Positions 14,171 through 37,817 of a DNA stretch of 52,653 nucleotides are shown here, one piece after another; position 1 is the stretch's first letter; every line of letters begins with the position of its first letter. This DNA is from Truepera sp. (GTDB lineage: Bacteria > Deinococcota > Deinococci > Deinococcales > Trueperaceae): NCBI GenBank assembly GCA_965218435.1, contig CBDCKW010000002.1, positions 1 through 52,653 of the forward strand, in the 5' to 3' direction. Under the pieces are notes generated by a model, which made no database searches, was not told where the DNA came from, and was given only the letters and a program-made list of their open reading frames with translations. Position numbers and translations under genes: made by a program.

Positions 14171-14292
14171 TTTGGTACACACACCTTTTTAGAGCGAGAA
14201 GGAAGGAACAGGAAGTAAGAAGGTTGCAAACTTTTTATGAGTAACGCTTGTCGCAAACCGAAACGATTTTTCAAACTGCCTAGTGACTTTGT

Positions 14293-14586
14293 TCAGCTGA
14301 CTACCGGCTCGTAAAGCTCCCGCTCGCGCTTGTCGAGCAAAGGGATAATCGTTCCTTCGATAATCTCTTTGAAATGGGATGTATCCCGGTGGGCAGCGAG
14401 GGCAGCCTCGTCGGTATAATGCTCATAGAGTAAAAAGAAATCCGGGTCGTCCGCTGACCGGCAGACGTGGTAGAGGGTGCAACCTGGTTCGTCGGCTTCG
14501 ACCAGAGGGGCCATTTGTTTCAGCGCGGCCGCAACTTCGTCGCCTTTGCTCTTTTTGACGTGGTACTTCGCTACCAACACAACCAT
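14293..14586 (-). CDS. ABM-domain protein (putative quinol monooxygenase family)
   Basis: EPGCTLY, FFLLYEHY.DEAALAAH..T.HF pattern; AAGGAG RBS. Confidence 0.85.
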   Translation of the reverse strand: MVVLVAKYHVKKSKGDEVAAALKQMAPLVEADEPGCTLYHVCRSADDPDFFLLYEHYTDEAALAAHRDTSHFKEIIEGTIIPLLDKRERELYEPVVS

Positions 14587-24707: not shown

Positions 24708-26118
24708 TAGTATTACAGCTGCAGTTAAGCCGGAGTAAGTTGAGCTATGCCTCTTTCCAGCGCCACACCTTGTATCAAAGCTTGGTCAGCTGAACTCGAT
24801 AACCTCCATAGTCGCATCGCAGGGCACTTCGGACGTTCCGAGCAGCGGCAGCGCGTCAAAGCGTATTTGCAAGCCCTGCTGAGCCCGGTCGAGCGCAAAA
24901 ATAGTTGGCAGCTGGCTGAGTGCTCAGGTGAAGCGACACCTGATGGGATGCAGCGGCTACTTTCGACGGCTGTGTGGGACGCTGATGTGGTCAGAGACGA
25001 ACTACGCAGGTATGTCCGCGATCGCTTGGGCAGCGAGCAAGCGGTGCTGGTGGTCGATGAAACCGGCTTTTTGAAACAAGGTGACAAGTCCGCAGGAGTC
25101 AAACGTCAATATAGCGGCACTGCTGGTCGTGTCGAGAACTGCCAAGTAGGGGTTTTCCTAGCCTACACAACACCTCAGGGAACAGCGTTCATCGACCGAG
25201 AACTGTTCTTGCCCAAGGAGTGGGTCGGTGATTTGCCGCGCCGCCGTAAAGCGCACATCCCCGACGGAGTAACCGGGGCAACCAAACCTGAGTTGGCCAA
25301 GACGATGCTGCAACGTGCTTTCGATGGTGGTGTAAAAGCCGCTTGGGTCACTGGAGACGCAGCCTATTCCGGTTACGGCGTGCGCTCATGGCTCGAAGAG
25401 AAAAAACAGCCGCATGTATTTGCGGTCGCCTCGAACTTCCATGTCTGGACTTGGGATCAGCAAGGGCCACGGCAACAGCAGGTCAAAGGCATCGTAGGTG
25501 AGTTTGACGAAGCTTGCTGGCAGCGGCTCAGTGCCGGAACGGGCAGTAAGGGAGAACGACTGTTCGAGTGGGCGTGGATCAGTATCTCGGCGTTGACGGC
25601 AAGGGGCTCAGCAATAGGTTTAGGCCCCGTGATCGAAGAAGGGTTCGAGCGCTGGATACTAGCGAGGCGGAGTTTGGACGACCCGACTGACCTCGCTTAC
25701 TTCACAGTCTTTGCGCCTCAAACAACATCTCTAGAAAGCGTGGTGCAAGTAGCAGGGGCTCGCTGGACTATCGAGGTTGGTTTCAAAACTGCCAAGGGCG
25801 AAGTTGGTCTCGACCAGTACGAAGTGCGTTCGTGGACGGGCTGGTATCGACATATCACCCTTGCTCTACTAGCCCATGCGTTTCTGGTGACGATACAGGC
25901 TCACGAGAAAAAAGGGGCTTGCCAGTCACTCCTTACCTAATCACGCTAACGGTGCCCGAAGTTCGACGTTTGTTTGGTCTAACACTACATCGGGTAGTAA
26001 GGCGAGCGTTTGTATTGGCTTGGTCGGTGTGGCGACGGCAGCATCAGTTTAGGGCACGACTATGCCATTACCGTCGGCGAGAGCAGCGCCGTGCCACCTA
26101 ACTGCAGCTGTAATACTA
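24708..26118 (+). mobile_element. IS701-family insertion sequence
   Basis: Perfect 20-bp terminal inverted repeat TAGTATTACAGCTGCAGTTA at 24708-24727 and 26099-26118 enclosing the transposase. Confidence 0.9.
24747..25940 (+). CDS. IS701-family transposase, with probable frameshift extension to 26101
   Basis: [33 protein letters not shown] and GLDQYEVR motifs; A6G4 slippery run at 25908-25917. Confidence 0.92.
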
Positions 26119-29790: not shown

Positions 29791-30093
29791 AAAGAGGGTT
29801 GGCTTTACCTAGCCGCCGTAATGGACGCTTGTTCCAAACGCATCATCGGCTACGCCCTGGCAGCACACATGAAAACCGAATTGGTGCTTCAGGCGCTCGC
29901 GATGGCCAAACCAGGGCGGCACCCGGCTAAGGGTCTCATCCACTACAGTGATAAGGGGCAGTCAATATACCTCTTACGCCTATGCCCGAGCGCTAGCTAC
30001 AGCAGGCATGAGAGCCAGTTTTACCGGGACTGGCGCATGCCTCGACAACGCCTACACCGAAAGCTTCTCCGCTACCCTCAAAAAAGAGTTGGT

Positions 30094-31040
30094 ACCCTAA
30101 TTGCTAGTTGCCGCCCAAGCGGTTGACTTCTAAGCTGGTGTTTGAGGACATCAGTAAAGGAGCAGCCGACATGGACGACAGCTTTATCATAGCCGCTTAC
30201 AGCATCATTGCCGACACCTTGCAAAGTCTGGGGCATGAAAGTCACCCGCTAGCCACGGTTAGCGACCCGGAAGTTTTAACCATTGCAGTGGTAGCAGCGA
30301 AATACTTTCAGAATCATCAGGAACGTGCCTTGTCAGTCATGATTGGCTCAGGTCACGTTCCCCGCTTAAGTGTGTCACGGTATAACCGCCGACTTCACGC
30401 CTTAGCAGCTTGGCTTGAAGGGCTACTTGGGTTGCTTAGCAAACTCTTTAACCGAGGGGAGGTGTTTATCATTGACAGTTTGCCTGTACCCGTGTGCCGA
30501 CGGGTTCGTGCAAGACGCTGTAAGAAGGTAAAAGGTAAGGCGTTCTGCAGCTACTGCGCTGCTAAAAAAGAAAAATTCTTCGGTTGGCGCTTACATCTAG
30601 TTTGTACACCTGCGGGTGTCCCGGTGAGTTTTGCTTTACTAGAGGCCAGTCATCAGCATAGGGGGCAGTGCCCCGGCCCTCTTGGGCCTGCTATACGACC
30701 TTACCCCTGTGCATGAACTCTGCTACGGCTTACCTCAAGGCGCAAGTGTCTACGCTGACAAAGCCTATAACAGTAGAGATGACGAAACCACGCTGTTGAC
30801 AGAAACAGCGGTAAAGCTCATACCCGCTCGCCGTAAAAATATGGAACAAAACACACTATCTGAATTCTTCTCACTCCAGCTTTACCGTAAAAGCATTGAA
30901 ACCCTCAACAGCCAACTCGAAAGTATGGGCACACAAACGCTTAAGGTTCGTACCAACGAAGGTTTCTTCATTAAGGTTCACGCTTCCTTGCTCGCTATTG
31001 TGCTTGCCAAGCTTGACTGAGGCTGACTAGCAATTAGGGT
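30094..31040 (+). mobile_element. IS982-family insertion sequence
   Basis: Perfect 15-bp IR ACCCTAATTGCTAGT (30094-30108 and 31026-31040); 5-bp target duplication TTGGT (30089-30093 and 31041-31045). Confidence 0.93.
30171..31020 (+). pseudogene. IS982 transposase frameshifted by a 40-nt insertion
   Basis: SD.EV.T, IDSLPVPVC, FFG..LH, ADKAY and RK.IET motifs; deleting 30656-30695 joins the two ORFs and restores ASHHDLTP. Confidence 0.88.
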
Positions 31041-31364
31041 TTGGTATATCAAACGTCATTTCAAACCCGAGATCAGGCTGCCTCGGCCATCAAGGACTTC
31101 ATCTTGATGTACTACAACAGCTGGCGACTTCATAGCAGCCTCGGCTATGTCTGCCCCAATGATTTTGAATCTCAGCACTTGGTCAACCTCGCTGCTTGAG
31201 GTAGACTTTTTTGTCCGTTTGACCTGACCAACTCCACGATAACCTTAGGCTCGTCTGACGAACGCTCGCTCAAGGACCATTTGACGACCGTATCTACCAG
31301 GTCCTTGGTCTCCCCTATTCGGTAAGACGTCGAAGCTCAACGCACCCGTGACTGGGAACACTCA

Positions 31365-32777
31365 TTAGCTACCGAAGTCGTTTTTCAAGGTGCTGAAGAC
31401 GTGTTCTGCAACCTCTTTGGGTTGACTGGCAAGCATCTGTGTCTCTTCGACAAACCTCGCAACGTCGTGAACCGCTTCTGGCAGCTCATCGCTATAAAGC
31501 TCGAGTAGATAGCTGTTGCGGGCGATTTCATATTGGGCTCCCTGCCAGCCCGCTTTCTCTAGCACGTCGAGAACGTAGGGACGGTGGCGGGTCTCGAGCT
31601 CGACGCGTAACATCTCGGGAAGCGCACAAAGCGTATCTTCGTCGAGCGTCTGGAGAATGCCCTCGGCCGCTTCGTTACGGTAAGCGTCGAAAGCGTGCCG
31701 GATGATTTCGACCAATTCGTCCGCGTCGGCTCGCTTCTCTCGTTTTCGTTTACCTAAGGCGTCTTGTTTAAGCGAGCGTAGCGCCGACCCGGAATCTACC
31801 AGATGCTTGATAAAACCGGGCAGATTGCTGATCGGCTTATTGACGCCGTTCCCGCGGCTGGCAGCGGCTCGGCCGAGCTTGATTGCCCGGGCGACGACTT
31901 CGTGGCTGTGGGTCAAGACAAAGGCGTCGGCATCTAGCGTATAGCCTGTGCTGCGAAGTTCGTCAGCTACGCTCTGCTCCTCAGCCGACAAGGTGAGCTG
32001 CCGAGGTTCTGGGATGGGCAGCGTTTCTTCTCTAACTAGCGAAAGGTGGAAGCGAACTTGCTGGATCGCGCGGCCTTGTCTCAGTGGATCGAACGAAAAG
32101 CGTAGACGGCCATGCGATTCAAACTCTTGACAGGCACGTTCAAGCATCTTACGAAAGTCGCGCCAAGCCTTGTATTTTTCGGTCCAGACTTTTTTCGACC
32201 CTTTGGTTTCGAGCACCCGCATCCCCATACTGAATTTGAGATCGGTGATGTTATAAGTTAAGACTTTCTTTTCGCCACCGTGCGAATCGTGCCACAAGAT
32301 CTCGTAGAGCCGCTGACCGTTAAACGATTCCATCGGCAGCACGTCGAGAAGCGGGATCGTGTTGTAGCGTTCACGTAGTTCGAGCAAAAGTGGGGCAAGT
32401 TCTTCGTTGAGCCGGATCTTGACGTAAGATTCGCCCGTCTCACTCGATTCCGCTGGCACGTACTGAGCGAGCGTCGTCCACTGAAACTCCTTAAAGCCCC
32501 CATCGTCGGTTGGTATAAAGACCTGACGGCGCAGTAGACCCCGCGCAGCACGTTCAGCACGAGCGTAGGGATTCTCGCCAAAGTGCTCGGTAAGCTCTTT
32601 CATACCGATCTTATGAGTAAGGAGTTCTTTATCGCCGCTTTTAATCCGCGCCATCGTAAGAAAGATCAACCTTTTCTCATTGAGCTCTAAGGCCTGACCG
32701 CTTTTTGCCAGCATGTTTGCTTGCCGGACACGCGCTTTACTGAATTCGAGATCGAGCTTTTCGCCGCTTTGAGACAC
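31365..32777 (-). CDS. Plasmid replication initiator protein (Rep_3 family)
   Basis: VRQANML, L.LNEKRL, LAPLLLEL..RY.....D, S..GQRLYEIL and F..ML..A..E patterns; GAGGAG RBS with GTG; iterons upstream. Confidence 0.88.
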   Translation of the reverse strand: MSQSGEKLDLEFSKARVRQANMLAKSGQALELNEKRLIFLTMARIKSGDKELLTHKIGMKELTEHFGENPYARAERAARGLLRRQVFIPTDDGGFKEFQWTTLAQYVPAESSETGESYVKIRLNEELAPLLLELRERYNTIPLLDVLPMESFNGQRLYEILWHDSHGGEKKVLTYNITDLKFSMGMRVLETKGSKKVWTEKYKAWRDFRKMLERACQEFESHGRLRFSFDPLRQGRAIQQVRFHLSLVREETLPIPEPRQLTLSAEEQSVADELRSTGYTLDADAFVLTHSHEVVARAIKLGRAAASRGNGVNKPISNLPGFIKHLVDSGSALRSLKQDALGKRKREKRADADELVEIIRHAFDAYRNEAAEGILQTLDEDTLCALPEMLRVELETRHRPYVLDVLEKAGWQGAQYEIARNSYLLELYSDELPEAVHDVARFVEETQMLASQPKEVAEHVFSTLKNDFGS

Positions 32778-32823
32778 GAGTGCTCCTCTTTAGCCTAGTG
32801 CGTTGTATTAGCCTAAAGCTAGA

Positions 32824-32851
32824 GTGGAATTATTGTCAAGACCAATTCCAC
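32824..32851. promoter_or_regulatory. Inverted repeat upstream of rep, possible autoregulatory operator
   Basis: GTGGAATT-N12-AATTCCAC, about 50 bp before the rep start. Confidence 0.4.
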
Positions 32852-32879
32852 ATTTGCCGCGCCGTTATGCCGGACAAAA

Positions 32880-33217
32880 CGAATATCTTGTCCACCTTAG
32901 GACCGAGCTCGGTGTTTTACACCGGATGATACGAATATTTTGTCCACACTTACGCCGCAACGTCTGTACTTACACCCAAAGCGAACATCTTGCCCCAACT
33001 ACGTCAAGAAGAAGCGTAGCGCACCTTTGCAGCCTTGAAACCAGCGTATGAGACGGCGCTAAAGCGGTTACGAACAATCTGTCCACCGCAGACGAATACT
33101 TTGCCCCATAAAGACGAACACGCTGTCCCCCTAAGCGAACACCGTGCCCCTTTCAAGCGAATATCGTGTCTTGCCTTTACGAACATCATGCCCCCTTTAC
33201 TCGAATTATTCGTCCCC
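32880..33217 (+). repeat. Iteron array (probable replication origin)
   Basis: Ten degenerate direct repeats CGAAYAnnnTGYCC starting at 32880, 32932, 32982, 33071, 33093, 33115, 33136, 33158, 33180 and 33202; the last seven are spaced 21-22 bp; outliers at 33472, 33494 and 33812. Confidence 0.85.
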
Positions 33218-33850
33218 CTATGCAGGCGTTTCTTGCGTCGGTGAGCCATATTCTTGGGGGTGACAAATATAAACTGTTTGGTAAGGTCAATTGCAATGTA
33301 TCAACATCAAGTCATTGACCGGGGTGTGCTTCCGGCGAACGTCACATTTTGTTGCTGCCCGAAATCTTTTTTACCCCGATTTTCCCCCAATCTTTATAGA
33401 AAGATCTCGAAGTCGAGGTCTCCCACCTGAGTAGTTACGCCACAACACAATAAGTAATTGACATGGGGCAACGAATAATATGCCCACAGTTGGCGAATAC
33501 CTGTACCACTGTACGGCCTTAGAAAAGGATTACGGCGGGGTAACCGTGTGGCTCGGTAGCGTGCGTGTCACTACGCTTACAGGTTGCACGACGCCAACCA
33601 CGATTCGATACTTTCGAGACCCCGATAATCGTTAGGTGCTTTCGACGACACCCAGAACCCTTTTTCACGCAAAAAACATAGCGTTGTTCTAACATGGTAA
33701 CGCCAGAGGGAATAAACACCATTCCCGCCGCACTCGGCGCAGGTACACGAAAATGAGCCTCGAATTCTTGGTTATAACGGGCAGTAGCGGTCTATTTGCA
33801 TGTCAAACCTACGAATACCGTGTCCACTTTTCGAAACTAGCCTGTTACAC

Positions 33851-34970
33851 TAAGTACGTCCAAGCCAACTTTCCACAATAATAAGGGATGGCAAATCGAG
33901 CGAACCGCTACATCACTTTGAGCCAAGCAGAGAACGAGAAGTTGAGAGCCTTGGAGCAGAACCCACACATATTCACTGGAAAGTGCGTCTGCGGGTACAG
34001 ATGCTGAGACTTTCACATGAGGGCGCAAGCATGCAAGGGATAAGCCAGTATGTAGGCAAAGGCAAAAGCTACGATACGGTCAGAACCACGTTTGCCCGCT
34101 GGGAGACAGCGGGCTATGCAGGCTTAGCCGATCATGTCGAGAACCAAGGTCAAAACCCCCTTATTACTGAAGCCATCAAAGCGTTCATGGAAGCGAAGCT
34201 AAAAGAAGAAAGAACCTGGGCGTGTCGGCAGCTTTCAGAGGTAATTAACGAGGATTACGGCGTCAAAGTTGGTTCTGAAGGTATTCGTTTGAGGTTGCGA
34301 GAAATGGGCTACAGCTGGAAGAGGGGACGGTTTGTCCCGGCCAAGCGTCCCAGCGAGGACGAGCTTAAGCATCATAAAGCAGTGTTGGACACCCTGAAAA
34401 GGGGGCTTTAGCAGGACGCTTGAAGCTCTATTACCTTGACCAGGTAGGGTTTAGTTTAGTCCTTAAGCTCATCAAGACTTGGACGCTCAAAGGTTCAGGG
34501 ATTCAGTTCGAGATTCCTTCACGGCAGGGTTCAGCCGGAAGGCTTAATCTCATAGGCGCATTAGACTTTGCAGCTAACAAGCTTGTTTACCGTGATTTAG
34601 CGGGTAGCTGTGACGCCAAAAAGTGTGAGGCGTTTCTCGACAGCCTTATGGCAGCGGCTGACCCCAAAGGTTTAACTGTCGTCGTACTCGGTCCGAGCGG
34701 AGCGAGAACACAACGTAATAACGCGAGATTCCATAAAGCCGCTAACATCAAAGCCAAAGAACCTCAGTGGCAAGCTCACGGTTTATTCCTTCGTTATCTT
34801 CCCCCTTATTCCCCGCAGCTAAATCCCATTGAAGCTTGCTGGCGAGTGCTTAAAGGGTTTCTGCTGCCTAGACGCTTATACACTTCTCTCAAAAGCCTCA
34901 GAGAGGCTGTCTTTTCGGGTCTCTCCGTCTTGGATGCGATTAATGCGTAGAGTTAGCTTGGTTGTACTTA
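33851..34970 (+). mobile_element. IS630-family insertion sequence (defective)
   Basis: TA-flanked IRs: CTAAGTACGTCCAAGCCAACT versus reverse complement of right end CTAAGTACAACCAAGCTAACT (18/21 identical). Confidence 0.88.
33888..34950 (+). pseudogene. IS630 transposase (orfA HTH + orfB DDE), disrupted
   Basis: ATG 33888; frameshift near 33968; A4G5 slippery site 34397-34405; YYLDQ, LPPYSPQLNPIE..W motifs; 27-nt insert replaces the Asp of VLDNA. Confidence 0.88.
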
Positions 34971-35413
34971 GCAAGCCAACGTCTCTCACGTCTTCGGGTT
35001 TATACCTAGCAGCAAATTAAAGTCTACTTGCTGCCGATTGTCAAGCAGCTTTCCTTATCTCAAAAAAAGCATGGTAAAGATGAGAAATCCCTCTCTTGTT
35101 CGCATAGGCGAATCGCCCCCTTCACTGTAGTCTGTTGTCTTGACGGTTCAGCCACTTTAAGTCACGCCGGTTTGGGTGCAAGCTAGGAAGGTGCGGAAGC
35201 AGAGATCATAGAATTACCATTGGGTCGCTATGTTAGACGGCAGAGCTGCACAGGTGTCACATTCTGTCTCACCCCTTATGAATGAAGTGAGCTGAGTAAA
35301 AGCAGTTTTATGTGTAAAATGCTCACCGCTAGTTGTAGACGAGCGTCTTGCCGATCAGATAGAAAAATATTCTTTCGCTAGTTCGGCTGTGTGGGACGTG
35401 GCATCTGTGTACT

Positions 35414-35430
35414 CGTCCCGCTCCGGGACG
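35414..35430. promoter_or_regulatory. parS-like palindrome overlapping the probable parA promoter
   Basis: CGTCCCG-CTC-CGGGACG just upstream of TATACT (35435-35440); near-identical copy after parB. Confidence 0.6.
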
Positions 35431-35458
35431 CGGGTATACTGATACGACCGGAATAAAT

Positions 35459-36259
35459 TTGCTAGAATCAAAAAATGATGCGGGCAACCCCGAAAATGGT
35501 CAGGCTTTGAAAGTTATAGCGATTGCCAACCAAAAAGGTGGGGTTGCAAAAACTACGACCGCGATCAATCTTGCTTCAGGGCTTTCGCGTCAGCAAGCTC
35601 GGACCTTGCTGGTCGATCTCGATCCTCAAGCCAACGCTACACAGAGTTTGCCGCAATCCGAGCAAGCCACTGCTCCCACCGTATTCGACGTCTTTAGCGG
35701 CGTTCTTTCGGTCCGTGAGACGGCTTACGAGGTTGGCAAACGACTCGATTTAGTAGCGTCGCATATCAAGTTGGCCAAGCTCGAGCCTCAGCTACAGGGT
35801 GCCGTCGATTCCTATCGCCTTCGTGAAGCTTTAGAAGGTCTCCCCTACGATTATGTCGTGATCGATTGCCCCCCCTCGTTGGGGGCGCTAACTACCAACG
35901 CACTCGTCGCAGCCAGCCACGTTTTGGTACCGGTGACGGCGAGTTATTACGGCCTGAACGCCGTCGCAGACTTTATCGAAACGTTCAATCAAATCCGTCG
36001 GATCATCAATATCAACCTCGAACTGCTTGGCATCGTCGTAACGATTTTCGATAGTCGGTTGACGATTTCCAACGATGTGATAAGCGTTTTACGAGAAACT
36101 TACGGAACCGCTGTTTTTGAGACGGTGATTCATAAGACAGTACGCCTCGATGAGGCTGCCAGTGGCCGTACCAGCATTTTCGAGTACGATTCCGCCTCAC
36201 GCGGCGCTGAGGACTACCACAAACTCTTAGAGGAGGTGCTGAAACGTGCCAGCTCGTAG
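35459..36259 (+). CDS. parA: ParA/Soj family partition ATPase
   Basis: ANQKGGVAKTTT deviant Walker A, DLDPQAN and IDCPPSLG motifs; exact start uncertain. Confidence 0.95.
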   Translation: MLESKNDAGNPENGQALKVIAIANQKGGVAKTTTAINLASGLSRQQARTLLVDLDPQANATQSLPQSEQATAPTVFDVFSGVLSVRETAYEVGKRLDLVASHIKLAKLEPQLQGAVDSYRLREALEGLPYDYVVIDCPPSLGALTTNALVAASHVLVPVTASYYGLNAVADFIETFNQIRRIININLELLGIVVTIFDSRLTISNDVISVLRETYGTAVFETVIHKTVRLDEAASGRTSIFEYDSASRGAEDYHKLLEEVLKRASS

Positions 36260-37058
36260 ACGTGGGCTTCAGGGGGACGTAAAGGCCGAAAACCGTAGTG
36301 GGGGAGACCACCCTTTGGCTGAACGAGAGGGCCGTAATGAAAACGCGCTGCTGGTACCGCTAAGCCGGATTCGGCCGGACCCAGATCAGCCGCGAAAAGT
36401 GTTCGATGAGGAGGCGCTTAAAGAGCTTTCCCGATCGCTTCAAGAACACGGTGTCTTACAGCCACTTGTCGTCTATAGAGAAAATGACCTGTATTACATT
36501 ATAGCGGGTGAACGCCGTTTTCGAGCGGCGCAACTCGCGGGCCTCGAGGCGGCACCGGTACAGCTGGTACACGACCGCAGTCGTATCAAAGAACTTCAAC
36601 TTGTCGAGAATCTACAACGCGAAGACCTCACCTTGATGGACGAGGCGAGAGCGCTCGCTAACCTCCAAAAAGAACTAGGTGCAAGCGTTCGGGGACTCGA
36701 ACAGGCCACCGGAAAGTCGAAGAGCTACGTGTCGCGGCGACTAGCACTGCTCAAGATGCCCATAGACGTCCAGCAGATGCTCGAAGAATCGCCTCAGCTT
36801 TTCTCTCAAGCCGAAGCCGTTGCGCAGATCGCCGACTCCGAACGGCGACAAGCCCGGATCGAGACGTTACTTCATGGACCCGCTTTGCCAAAAGGGGCTA
36901 CAGCCAAGCGGACTCGTGGGCGACCCGTCAAGCCGTTCGAATTGAAAAAGAAGCACTCAGGCGCGTTCGACCTCGTGGTCAAGTATCGCCCTGGTGAGTC
37001 GGATACGTCGGCGCTCATCGAGCAGCTCAAAGCTTTATTGAGAGAACTCGAGAAATAA
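36246..37058 (+). CDS. parB: ParB/Spo0J family partition protein
   Basis: QPRK.F, GVLQP, IAGERRFRA and ENLQREDL motifs plus HTH; GGAGG RBS; overlaps the parA stop. Confidence 0.95.
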   Translation: MPARRRGLQGDVKAENRSGGDHPLAEREGRNENALLVPLSRIRPDPDQPRKVFDEEALKELSRSLQEHGVLQPLVVYRENDLYYIIAGERRFRAAQLAGLEAAPVQLVHDRSRIKELQLVENLQREDLTLMDEARALANLQKELGASVRGLEQATGKSKSYVSRRLALLKMPIDVQQMLEESPQLFSQAEAVAQIADSERRQARIETLLHGPALPKGATAKRTRGRPVKPFELKKKHSGAFDLVVKYRPGESDTSALIEQLKALLRELEK

Positions 37059-37120: not shown

Positions 37121-37209
37121 TAACGCACTTTTTCCCCTAGCGCGGTTCTCACGTTGCAATTTGTATACGACACAATCAGGCCGTAAAGAATAGGATGTTT
37201 TGAATCTCT

Positions 37210-37730
37210 TGGGGTCTGATTCCCCGCCGCTTGCGGCGTAGACTCACAAGGTGAGCAAGTATATCCACAAGAGCCACAACGTAGATATTCTGATGTACCA
37301 CATAGTTTTTCCGGCGAAGCACCGTCGCGCGGTGATAGACGATGAAGTTGACAACGTGCTCAAAGAAGTCTGCATGGAGATTGAGAAGCGTTACGAGATC
37401 ATATTTTTAGAGATAGGCACAGACAAGGATCATGTCCATTTTCTGGTGCAATCGGTGCCCACTTACACGGTTGTAAAGATCGTGCGAACGATCAAAAGTA
37501 TTACCGCACGTAAAGTGTTCCGGCAATGTCCACAAGTCAAGAAGAAGCTTTGGGGGGGAGAGTTCTGGTCGGATGGCTACTTTGCCAGTACCGTAGGCAA
37601 ACATGGTGATGAAGGCTTGATAGGCTCGTATGTAAGAAAGCAGGGAAAGCACTATCAACAACTGCACCAGACGCAGCAGGGGAGCTTGTTTGACTGGAAT
37701 ACCCCGTCCGCTTGCGGCGGGGTTCTTTAT
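37210..37730 (+). mobile_element. IS200-type element (tnpA only); ends approximate
   Basis: Subterminal hairpins CGCCGCTTGCGGCG (37225-37238) and ACCCCGTCCGCTTGCGGCGGGGT (37701-37723) flank a Y1 transposase; no tnpB. Confidence 0.8.
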
Positions 37731-37817
37731 TTTAATGTATGCTTCATCAACAAGGGGAGAAAAACAAGCCCAAGCTCTCGAAGGAGAACTAGAAAGGGAC
37801 CAGACAGTAAGGCTTGA
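37251..37817 (+). CDS. tnpA: IS200/IS605 family Y1 transposase; reads through the right end
   Basis: YHIVF..K.R, DHVH (HUH), KS..AR, LWGGEFWSDGYF.STVG and YVRKQ motifs. Confidence 0.9.
   Translation: MSKYIHKSHNVDILMYHIVFPAKHRRAVIDDEVDNVLKEVCMEIEKRYEIIFLEIGTDKDHVHFLVQSVPTYTVVKIVRTIKSITARKVFRQCPQVKKKLWGGEFWSDGYFASTVGKHGDEGLIGSYVRKQGKHYQQLHQTQQGSLFDWNTPSACGGVLYFNVCFINKGRKTSPSSRRRTRKGPDSKA

Follow-up and report, generated by a model that had tools for sequence, protein, structure and literature searches.

Two transposase genes in a 52,653-nt contig of Truepera sp. (contig C2 of the genome under study, G000; the whole contig is called the window here) are each interrupted by a very short insert, one of 40 nt in an insertion sequence (IS) of the IS982 family and one of 27 nt in an IS of the IS630 family. 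What are these inserts, and how did they come to lie within conserved transposase codons? A sequence-only reading of the window had proposed tiny non-autonomous elements, or a templated insertion activity, aimed at transposases. The two inserts were found to belong to different families. In our judgement they are probably non-autonomous micro-elements (about 21-42 nt) of Deinococcota, which work like the small dispersed repeats (SDRs) of cyanobacteria. Such micro-elements were shown to have been inserted whole and without target duplication, repeatedly and independently.

Two inserts and their recurrence at the same bonds

Both inserts were confirmed where the sequence-only reading had placed them (Table 1). 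As it had stated, neither has a multi-base target duplication: the junction of the 40-mer slides 1 nt to the right at most, and that of the 27-mer cannot slide. Skipping the inserts restored the motifs, giving open frames with S-H-H-D-L for IS982 and V-V-L-D-N for IS630, and both aligned to empty paralogues of the same genome. The H-D of IS982 is presumably conserved and outside the catalytic triad. The supposed lack of coding capacity does not hold for the 27-mer, which consists of nine codons, in frame and stop-free; the 40-mer shifts the frame. The rest of the window IS982 frame is open. The window IS630 has a further frameshift near 33965, unrelated to the 27-nt insert, and the 27-mer may therefore have landed in an already dead copy.

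The 27-mer family was searched for by element sequence, not by site, and 7 distinct sites were found. Five of these lie in IS630, at the G^A bond within the codon for its second catalytic Asp (the window, C9:1526413 of G000, two copies in G004 and one in G005), in hosts from the three genomes G000, G004 and G005. Chance does not explain why all 5 IS630 matches share a single position among about 1,100. The sixth site is in frame in a G004 gene, which we take from its motifs to be topA-like and whose orthologue in G000 is empty. The seventh is antisense in a gene of G115, presumably Uma2-like, again from a motif. The G005 variant ends in G, by which the Asp codon is re-created behind nine extra codons.

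A second IS982 lineage, represented by 2 copies and 78% identical to that of the window, carries an identical 40-mer (0 mismatches) at the same S-H^H-D bond. Over 161 codons, 84 are identical between the two lineages, 55 differ synonymously and 22 non-synonymously. Mismatches in the flanks begin at -8 and +8, leaving perfect identity of 7+7 nt beside the insert. Since the lineages diverge mostly synonymously and their sequences part 8 nt away from the insert in both directions, the 40-mer is younger than their split. The second lineage also has a 20-nt deletion. At an unrelated site the 40-mer was present in one contig of run X3 (depth 3). The exact 40-mer was found in 0 of 40 relatives, and no stretch of it was found in the searched genome contigs either. 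The inserts are thus not unique but recur at the same bonds in diverged hosts, in agreement with the earlier suggestion of tiny non-autonomous elements at fixed conserved transposase codons.

The identity of the 40-mer in two lineages of one genome, and recurrence at conserved stretches, could also be due to one ancient insertion per site that was then passed between paralogous IS through homologous recombination or gene conversion. However, perfect identity beside the insert is short in IS982 and shorter still in IS630, where the flanks mismatch from -2 and +5 (1+4 nt). A single filled clade was rejected (p-AU 5e-63) in a DNA tree built from 4 filled and 13 empty copies of IS630, to which the G005 copy, a later find, does not belong. 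Filled hosts lie in separate IS630 clades, inserts differ among hosts with compensatory changes, and the same elements occur in unrelated genes. For the 27-mer this explanation is largely refuted, and overall it was judged very unlikely.

An assembly or sequencing artefact might be suspected, as the window near-duplicates part of contig C5 and runs X1 and X2 are one sample that may be the source of the assembly and is then not independent of it. The evidence from these runs consists of read-derived contigs, and these carry both inserts. The 27-mer is spanned gap-free by one contig in each of the two runs, and the 40-mer is tiled by overlapping contigs, with a depth in X1 of 267 over the 42-nt core and about 100-110 on the flanks. 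In a contig of run X5, from another study, a related IS982 allele lacks the 40-mer. The same run holds an empty site for IS982 (952 nt skipped), and a contig of run X3 lacks the whole IS630 (empty site, 1118 nt skipped). As the families are also present in 12 of 128 independent assemblies (E <1e-10) and in a finished plasmid, an artefact is refuted and was given next to no probability.

Table 1. Positions of the two inserts, their host elements and neighbouring features in the window
Feature	Position	Strand	Basis and remarks
40-nt double-hairpin micro-element	30655..30694	+	Frameshifts IS982 transposase within second His codon of S-H-H-D
27-nt micro-element, GCGNAGC mini-hairpin and second 2-bp hairpin	34691..34717	+	In frame; splits second catalytic Asp codon (G^AT) of IS630 transposase
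IS982-family element, host of 40-mer	30094..31040	+	NF033520 (NCBIfam); terminal inverted repeats; 5-bp target duplication
IS630-family element, host of 27-mer	33851..34970	+	NF033545 (NCBIfam); TA duplication; two-ORF (open reading frame) layout
IS3-family remnant, IS982 sits inside it	29799..31199	+	Pfam rve, rve_2, rve_3 on pieces
Rep3-type replication initiator, between IS982 and IS630 (context only)	31365..32777	-	
IS200/IS605-family element with Y1 TnpA	37198..37731	+	TnpA 37251-37700; ends unlike either insert

Covariance models of both families match the window at the two inserts only, in agreement with the earlier remark that no such inserts were noticed in the metabolic genes. The window is a near-copy (98.7-99.8%) of G000:C5:175592-226735, probably as an alternative haplotype, and C2 and C5:175-227 kb were scored as one locus. 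An IS701-like element at about 24711-26116 is extra in the window, having no counterpart in C5, and a stretch near 14190-14298 diverges between the two. The region 31365-37058, in which the Rep3 initiator, a repeat-rich stretch upstream of it and parA/parB are accompanied by several IS, represents the replication origin of a megaplasmid or chromid, and the IS630 is inserted between rep and par.

Folds, spread and further small inserts

The core of the 27-mer family, GCGNAGC, is flanked by GA/GA, and all four N variants are present. In the second hairpin the outer pair 20/26 is A-T, G-C or C-G among the members. GCGNAGC is described as a hyperstable DNA mini-hairpin, related RNA being much weaker (PMC13037366; here and below, statements with PMC numbers draw on part of the source). 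The 27-mer patterns gave 0 matches in metagenome contigs and one match, unrelated, in viral contigs. Pairing of a guide-like kind between the 27-mer and the flank to its left was rejected: it looks plausible in the window copy (z about -1.1) and fails in the variants outside IS630.

Members of the distinct family of the 40-mer form three-way junctions, in which a closing stem of 4 bp is combined with two hairpins that abut, 3 unpaired nt and a spacer of 2 nt. In an alignment of 13 members, 98% of 169 cells were paired, a score that kinship can inflate and in which the window copy is one column out of register, and 7 of 13 pairs were changed on both sides. Pairing as high was reached in 0 of 500 shuffles, and slid controls were far lower. 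The stems of the micro-elements were shown to be kept by compensatory changes. The family of the 40-mer is a covarying double-hairpin family; the 27-mer has the DNA mini-hairpin.

With 52 candidates scored per genome, model R1 gave matches at E<=0.01 in 19 of 128 genomes of the taxonomic family, 12 of these below 1e-10. In an order-wide sample it matched 7 of 150 genomes, two of these being among the 36 of a second family and none in three others. Subfamily R2 was matched in 5 of 6 genomes of the genus. The named carriers are Deinococcota, namely Truepera and Meiothermus metagenome-assembled genomes and a finished Allomeiothermus plasmid. Filled and empty pairs gave clean gaps of 37, 38, 41 and 42 nt, and of 21-42 nt overall. 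Members were found nested within each other and in tandem arrays. An 18-nt double-hairpin pattern was found nowhere in viral contigs, and Rfam gave 0 matches in the window.

Further small inserts were observed beside these two families. A 23-mer is present in an IS6-like gene of G000, at what we take to be its catalytic Asp codon. Inserts of 21-24 nt with GNA-type loops (L038, G000:C5:494365; L039, G000:C5:241525; L070; L044) were seen in IS6-like genes, in G004 two codons past the Asp of IS630, and in an acidic gene outside IS that is present in multiple copies. Another family of 27-33 nt (L040, G000:C9:165038-165064, with 6 further copies; L041; L042) lies at the frameshift site of an ISL2-like element, in a RelE/ParE-like gene and in an IS5-like gene immediately ahead of its first Asp. 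Related stem-loop inserts of about 84 and 106 nt (L043, G000:C5:343710, and L172) share one site of IS5-family genes in two genomes, and one resembles a nested form of the other. Intergenic repeats of about 140 nt (L045 and L046, G000:C9:119520 and 1298200) contain the first hairpin module of the 27-mer.

Sites, rival explanations and the search for an enzyme

For the analysis of sites, 93 of 192 model matches were tabulated; most identical copies, weak matches and most rows of G115 were dropped, and a site may still be represented by more than one row. Blastx, with the Pfam-positive frames of the rows themselves among its seeds, places 57 of the 93 rows next to transposase sequence, and NCBIfam adds 5. 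These amount to 60 of 78 rows outside G001 and 2 of 15 in IS-poor G001. The sites in G001 include valS, in which 40 extra codons in frame derive from the double-hairpin family and appear to be retained, the 5' side of a Tyr/Trp-tRNA synthetase gene, a cupin gene and intergenic arrays. Dense nested clusters in and around valS and the Tyr/Trp-tRNA synthetase gene (L163, L164) suggest local hopping. In G000 the sites outside IS include an N6-methylase gene and intergenic DNA, and those read among the 34 matches of G326 are intergenic tandem composites. Besides IS, the micro-elements were shown to occupy host genes, often in frame, and intergenic DNA; they are concentrated in IS, not restricted to IS.

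Each subfamily was shown to prefer a short degenerate DNA target. The 37-nt subfamily prefers C at +2, T at +3 and G at +4 (18 of 25), and fixed codons of IS5 are hit repeatedly by other subfamilies, D-F-P-P^W in G000, G004 and G005 and F-A^W in G000 and G005. The pattern of family B caught many chance matches in G000, and its logo was not used as a count. The IS630-like 17-nt pattern of the 27-mer has only 3 empty matches in G000. The 27-mer would have a graded target preference centred near the IS630 sequence.

The likeliest explanation for these findings is that a folded single strand, probably of DNA, is the unit recognised by an enzyme acting in trans, which would cut the folded strand and join it into the target. 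The absence of duplication, the exact ends, the conservation of the fold and the DNA-type loops all point to such a step. The pile-up in IS may be due to a hit there being costless to the host, with the filled IS still copied and carrying the element along. Recurrence at conserved codons would follow if only these keep the same DNA target across diverged IS, the protein motif itself not being recognised.

Several observations weigh against this explanation. Standard folding models, which miss the GCGNAGC mini-hairpin, give the 27-mer no fold, and the 40-mer by itself exceeds its shuffles in folding by a moderate margin (z -2.1 as DNA, -1.5 as RNA). No mobiliser was found among reverse transcriptases (RT), Y1, RAYT, Ssn and IS110, which leaves the cut-and-join step putative. 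The consensus of all 27-mer sites, G-N8-G^A-N2-A, occurs 45,682 times in the genome, too often to explain 5 hits at one IS630 bond, so that a longer preference or IS-linked help is needed. In G000, 13 of 17 sites lie in IS (p=0.004 against a neutral share of 0.42), a count in which one site rests on a weak match and one on manual translation and in which sites are not fully independent. The neutral share was taken from 8.3% repeats and 11.5% non-coding DNA, with dispensable non-IS genes outside the denominator; the repeat share replaced a first IS mask (2.8%) that missed known IS copies. Finally, filled, frame-broken IS were amplified, with no close intact copies found.

The enrichment in G000, the 60 of 78 rows outside G001 and the way in which codons that are catalytic or conserved are hit again in IS630, IS5 and IS6-like genes would fit an IS-specialised parasite or an anti-IS defence, aimed through a guide or transposition intermediates and kept for silencing IS. 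This is close to what the sequence-only reading had proposed. Enrichment in IS was seen in G000; in G001 2 of 15 rows adjoin transposase sequence, and the same families sit in valS, topA-like, cupin and methylase genes and in intergenic arrays, which speaks against a system aimed at transposases. Most IS copies are also empty (in G005, one 27-mer-type hit was found among 150 scored IS630 matches), filled IS go on multiplying, and inspection showed no co-variation between variant elements and their flanks, which would be expected of a guide. A specialised parasite or defence was therefore considered unlikely.

The amplified copies bear on two further explanations. In G005 an IS630 (L209, G005:C8:439799-443599) carries a 37-nt double-hairpin insert between the first and second catalytic Asp. 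The DDE frame breaks at this insert, which leaves one extra base unaccounted for. Matches to this IS630 at 99-100% identity number 18 full-length and 2 split ones; beyond these, the closest relative found in that assembly is about 71% identical. Its ends match those of 10 other IS630 loci, sampled from more than 150 candidates, in 16 of 28 nt at best. In G000 all 7 near-identical copies of an ISL2-like element carry a 27-nt insert that puts a TAG in the transframe. An intact relative of 73% identity has near-identical ends and could move these copies in trans. The ordinary reading of amplified filled IS is mobilisation in trans or a lost master copy.

Micro-introns, spliced from RNA or bypassed in translation and moved by reverse splicing or another RNA route, would account for the roughly 20 copies of the G005 IS630 (100% identity), for the filling of all ISL2-like copies and for the otherwise open frame of the window IS982. 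However, many filled hosts have decayed further, among them the window IS630 and the second IS982 lineage, and the ISL2-like copies have their possible helper in trans. The extra codons of valS, the absence of an Rfam match and of RT in the carriers tested, and a mini-hairpin of DNA type also do not agree with RNA-level removal, which was held to be improbable. Unlikely, too, is that the inserts are a distinct class of IS hyperparasites, mobile and removable, which recognise long targets specific to each element, have come in evolution to favour conserved transposase codons and are moved by a new kind of enzyme, at least some being removed or bypassed in expression so that the filled transposase works. 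If this were true, removal or bypass would explain the approximately 20 identical copies in G005.

Candidate enzymes for the preferred explanation, small elements moved in trans, were looked for within and outside the window. The statement that the window encodes no mobilising enzyme has to be qualified: the TnpA of the IS200/IS605 element is present, but it is unlinked to the inserts. RT was absent in 5 of 5 carrier genomes tested, a set that lies apart from G002, G005 and G326, and Y1 was absent in 2 of the 5 (91% and 97% complete). None of 5 genomes was above the NF047646 cut-off for RAYT. In G000, 7 RT, 22 Y1 and 5 IS110 matches were found. The ends of Y1 elements (8 from G000, 3 from relatives) and the flanks of IS110 (n=5) showed no likeness to the inserts. 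The degenerate SRM pattern matched 0 of 2 inserts on both strands, flanks included. No flanking element copies were seen at the small GIY-YIG loci inspected (9 of 10). In the 5 carriers these genes have unremarkable neighbours, and synteny of the main one extends over 4 of them. A link to co-occurring RT, Y1/HUH or RAYT genes, which had been considered from sequence alone, was therefore not found in the carriers tested, nor was one to IS110 or Ssn, and the suggested templated insertion activity is left with no templating or mobilising enzyme identified. As side observations, L205 of G055 has a weak Y1 match and an internal GTAG-tagged palindrome of RAYT-type look, with a sequence unrelated to the inserts, and G000:C9:961400-963900 holds a group II intron, split by an IS3 and antisense in another IS630 just past the first catalytic Asp.

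This intron, together with the RT, Y1 and IS110 matches of G000, could indicate that larger elements (IS200/IS605, IS110 or a group II intron) formerly occupied these sites and left the inserts behind as scars or terminal remnants; Y1 and IS110 elements leave no duplication. However, 14-mer scans of the genome gave no longer element with these ends, and neither flank has a constant tetranucleotide. The ends and flanks compared above are unlike the inserts, two of the five carriers tested have no Y1, and tandem and nested arrays do not fit scars. This origin was regarded as highly improbable.

Comparison with known systems

Miniature inverted-repeat transposable elements differ from the inserts, which lack terminal inverted repeats of an IS together with a target duplication and have a junction shift of 0-1 nt and clean gaps. 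In contrast to PATE and other IS200/IS605 derivatives, the inserts share no ends with resident IS200/IS605 and have no constant target tetranucleotide. Conserved sites in other mobile genes are also the targets of group II introns and of IS110/IS1111, which insert there without duplication and use IS as a safe mobile host. The micro-elements resemble them in repeated insertion at one conserved IS bond without duplication, but have 27-40 nt, much less than the catalytic RNA domains known from introns would need, without intron domains, ORF or guide region, gave no Rfam match and showed no co-variation of element and target.

REP, REPIN and BIME sequences with RAYT are similar in their 20-40 nt hairpins, composites and tandem clusters, some in ORFs, and these hairpins are probably handled as single-stranded DNA (PMC3733652, PMC3116915). 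The earlier comparison with REP does not extend to membership, since the inserts have neither a GTAG nor a CGTC end tag, no transposase gene flanked by elements was seen, and no RAYT exceeded the cut-off in 5 of 5 genomes. In copy number and location the comparison is mixed: copy number is low in most carriers and the elements lie mostly within IS genes in G000 and G005, but the 34 matches in G326 are, where read, intergenic composites. The NTS/SRM repeats of Ssn are short hairpins as well and are tied to single-stranded DNA processing (PMC11893778); the inserts show no SRM pattern, and the small GIY-YIG genes have no flanking elements in the loci seen. A published description of these families was not found in a literature search that covered mainly open-access papers, PMC7335449 and PMC3184786 among them; intragenic REPs are listed in the supplements of PMC3733652, and these could bear on novelty.

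A size of 27-42 nt is at the lower limit for mobile DNA, and the movement of comparable cyanobacterial repeats is, as far as was found, still unsolved. Independent hits at one bond, exact junctions, empty alleles and genomes with and without the elements make the missing enzyme and the target rule testable. Scarless, sequence-preferring insertion of a short folded DNA would matter mechanistically and practically. In-frame peptides in housekeeping proteins (valS, topA-like), and the inactivation and riding of IS, bear on protein evolution and IS turnover.

Elhai et al. are reported to have described, in 2008 (Genome Res 18:1484), SDRs of about 21-27 nt in heterocyst-forming cyanobacteria, with nesting, compensatory changes and both coding and non-coding sites. 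The 27-mer lies within this size range, while the double-hairpin family has 37-42 nt. SDR5 inserts between nt 3 and 4 of HIP1 (PMC4390886; the comparison also draws on PMC5861425, PMC2884548 and PMC3116915), and the micro-elements agree with the SDRs in being very short, structured and mobile-looking, with no known mobiliser and precise insertion in a short target. Filled and empty alleles, a fold with compensatory changes, and nested and tandem insertion are likewise present here. The cyanobacterial repeats were thus an apt analogue in the sequence-only reading. The SDR hosts are cyanobacteria and the named carriers here are Deinococcota. The elements are likened to SDRs by behaviour and not filed as members; they represent, in Deinococcota, a new form of such very small dispersed mobile repeats.

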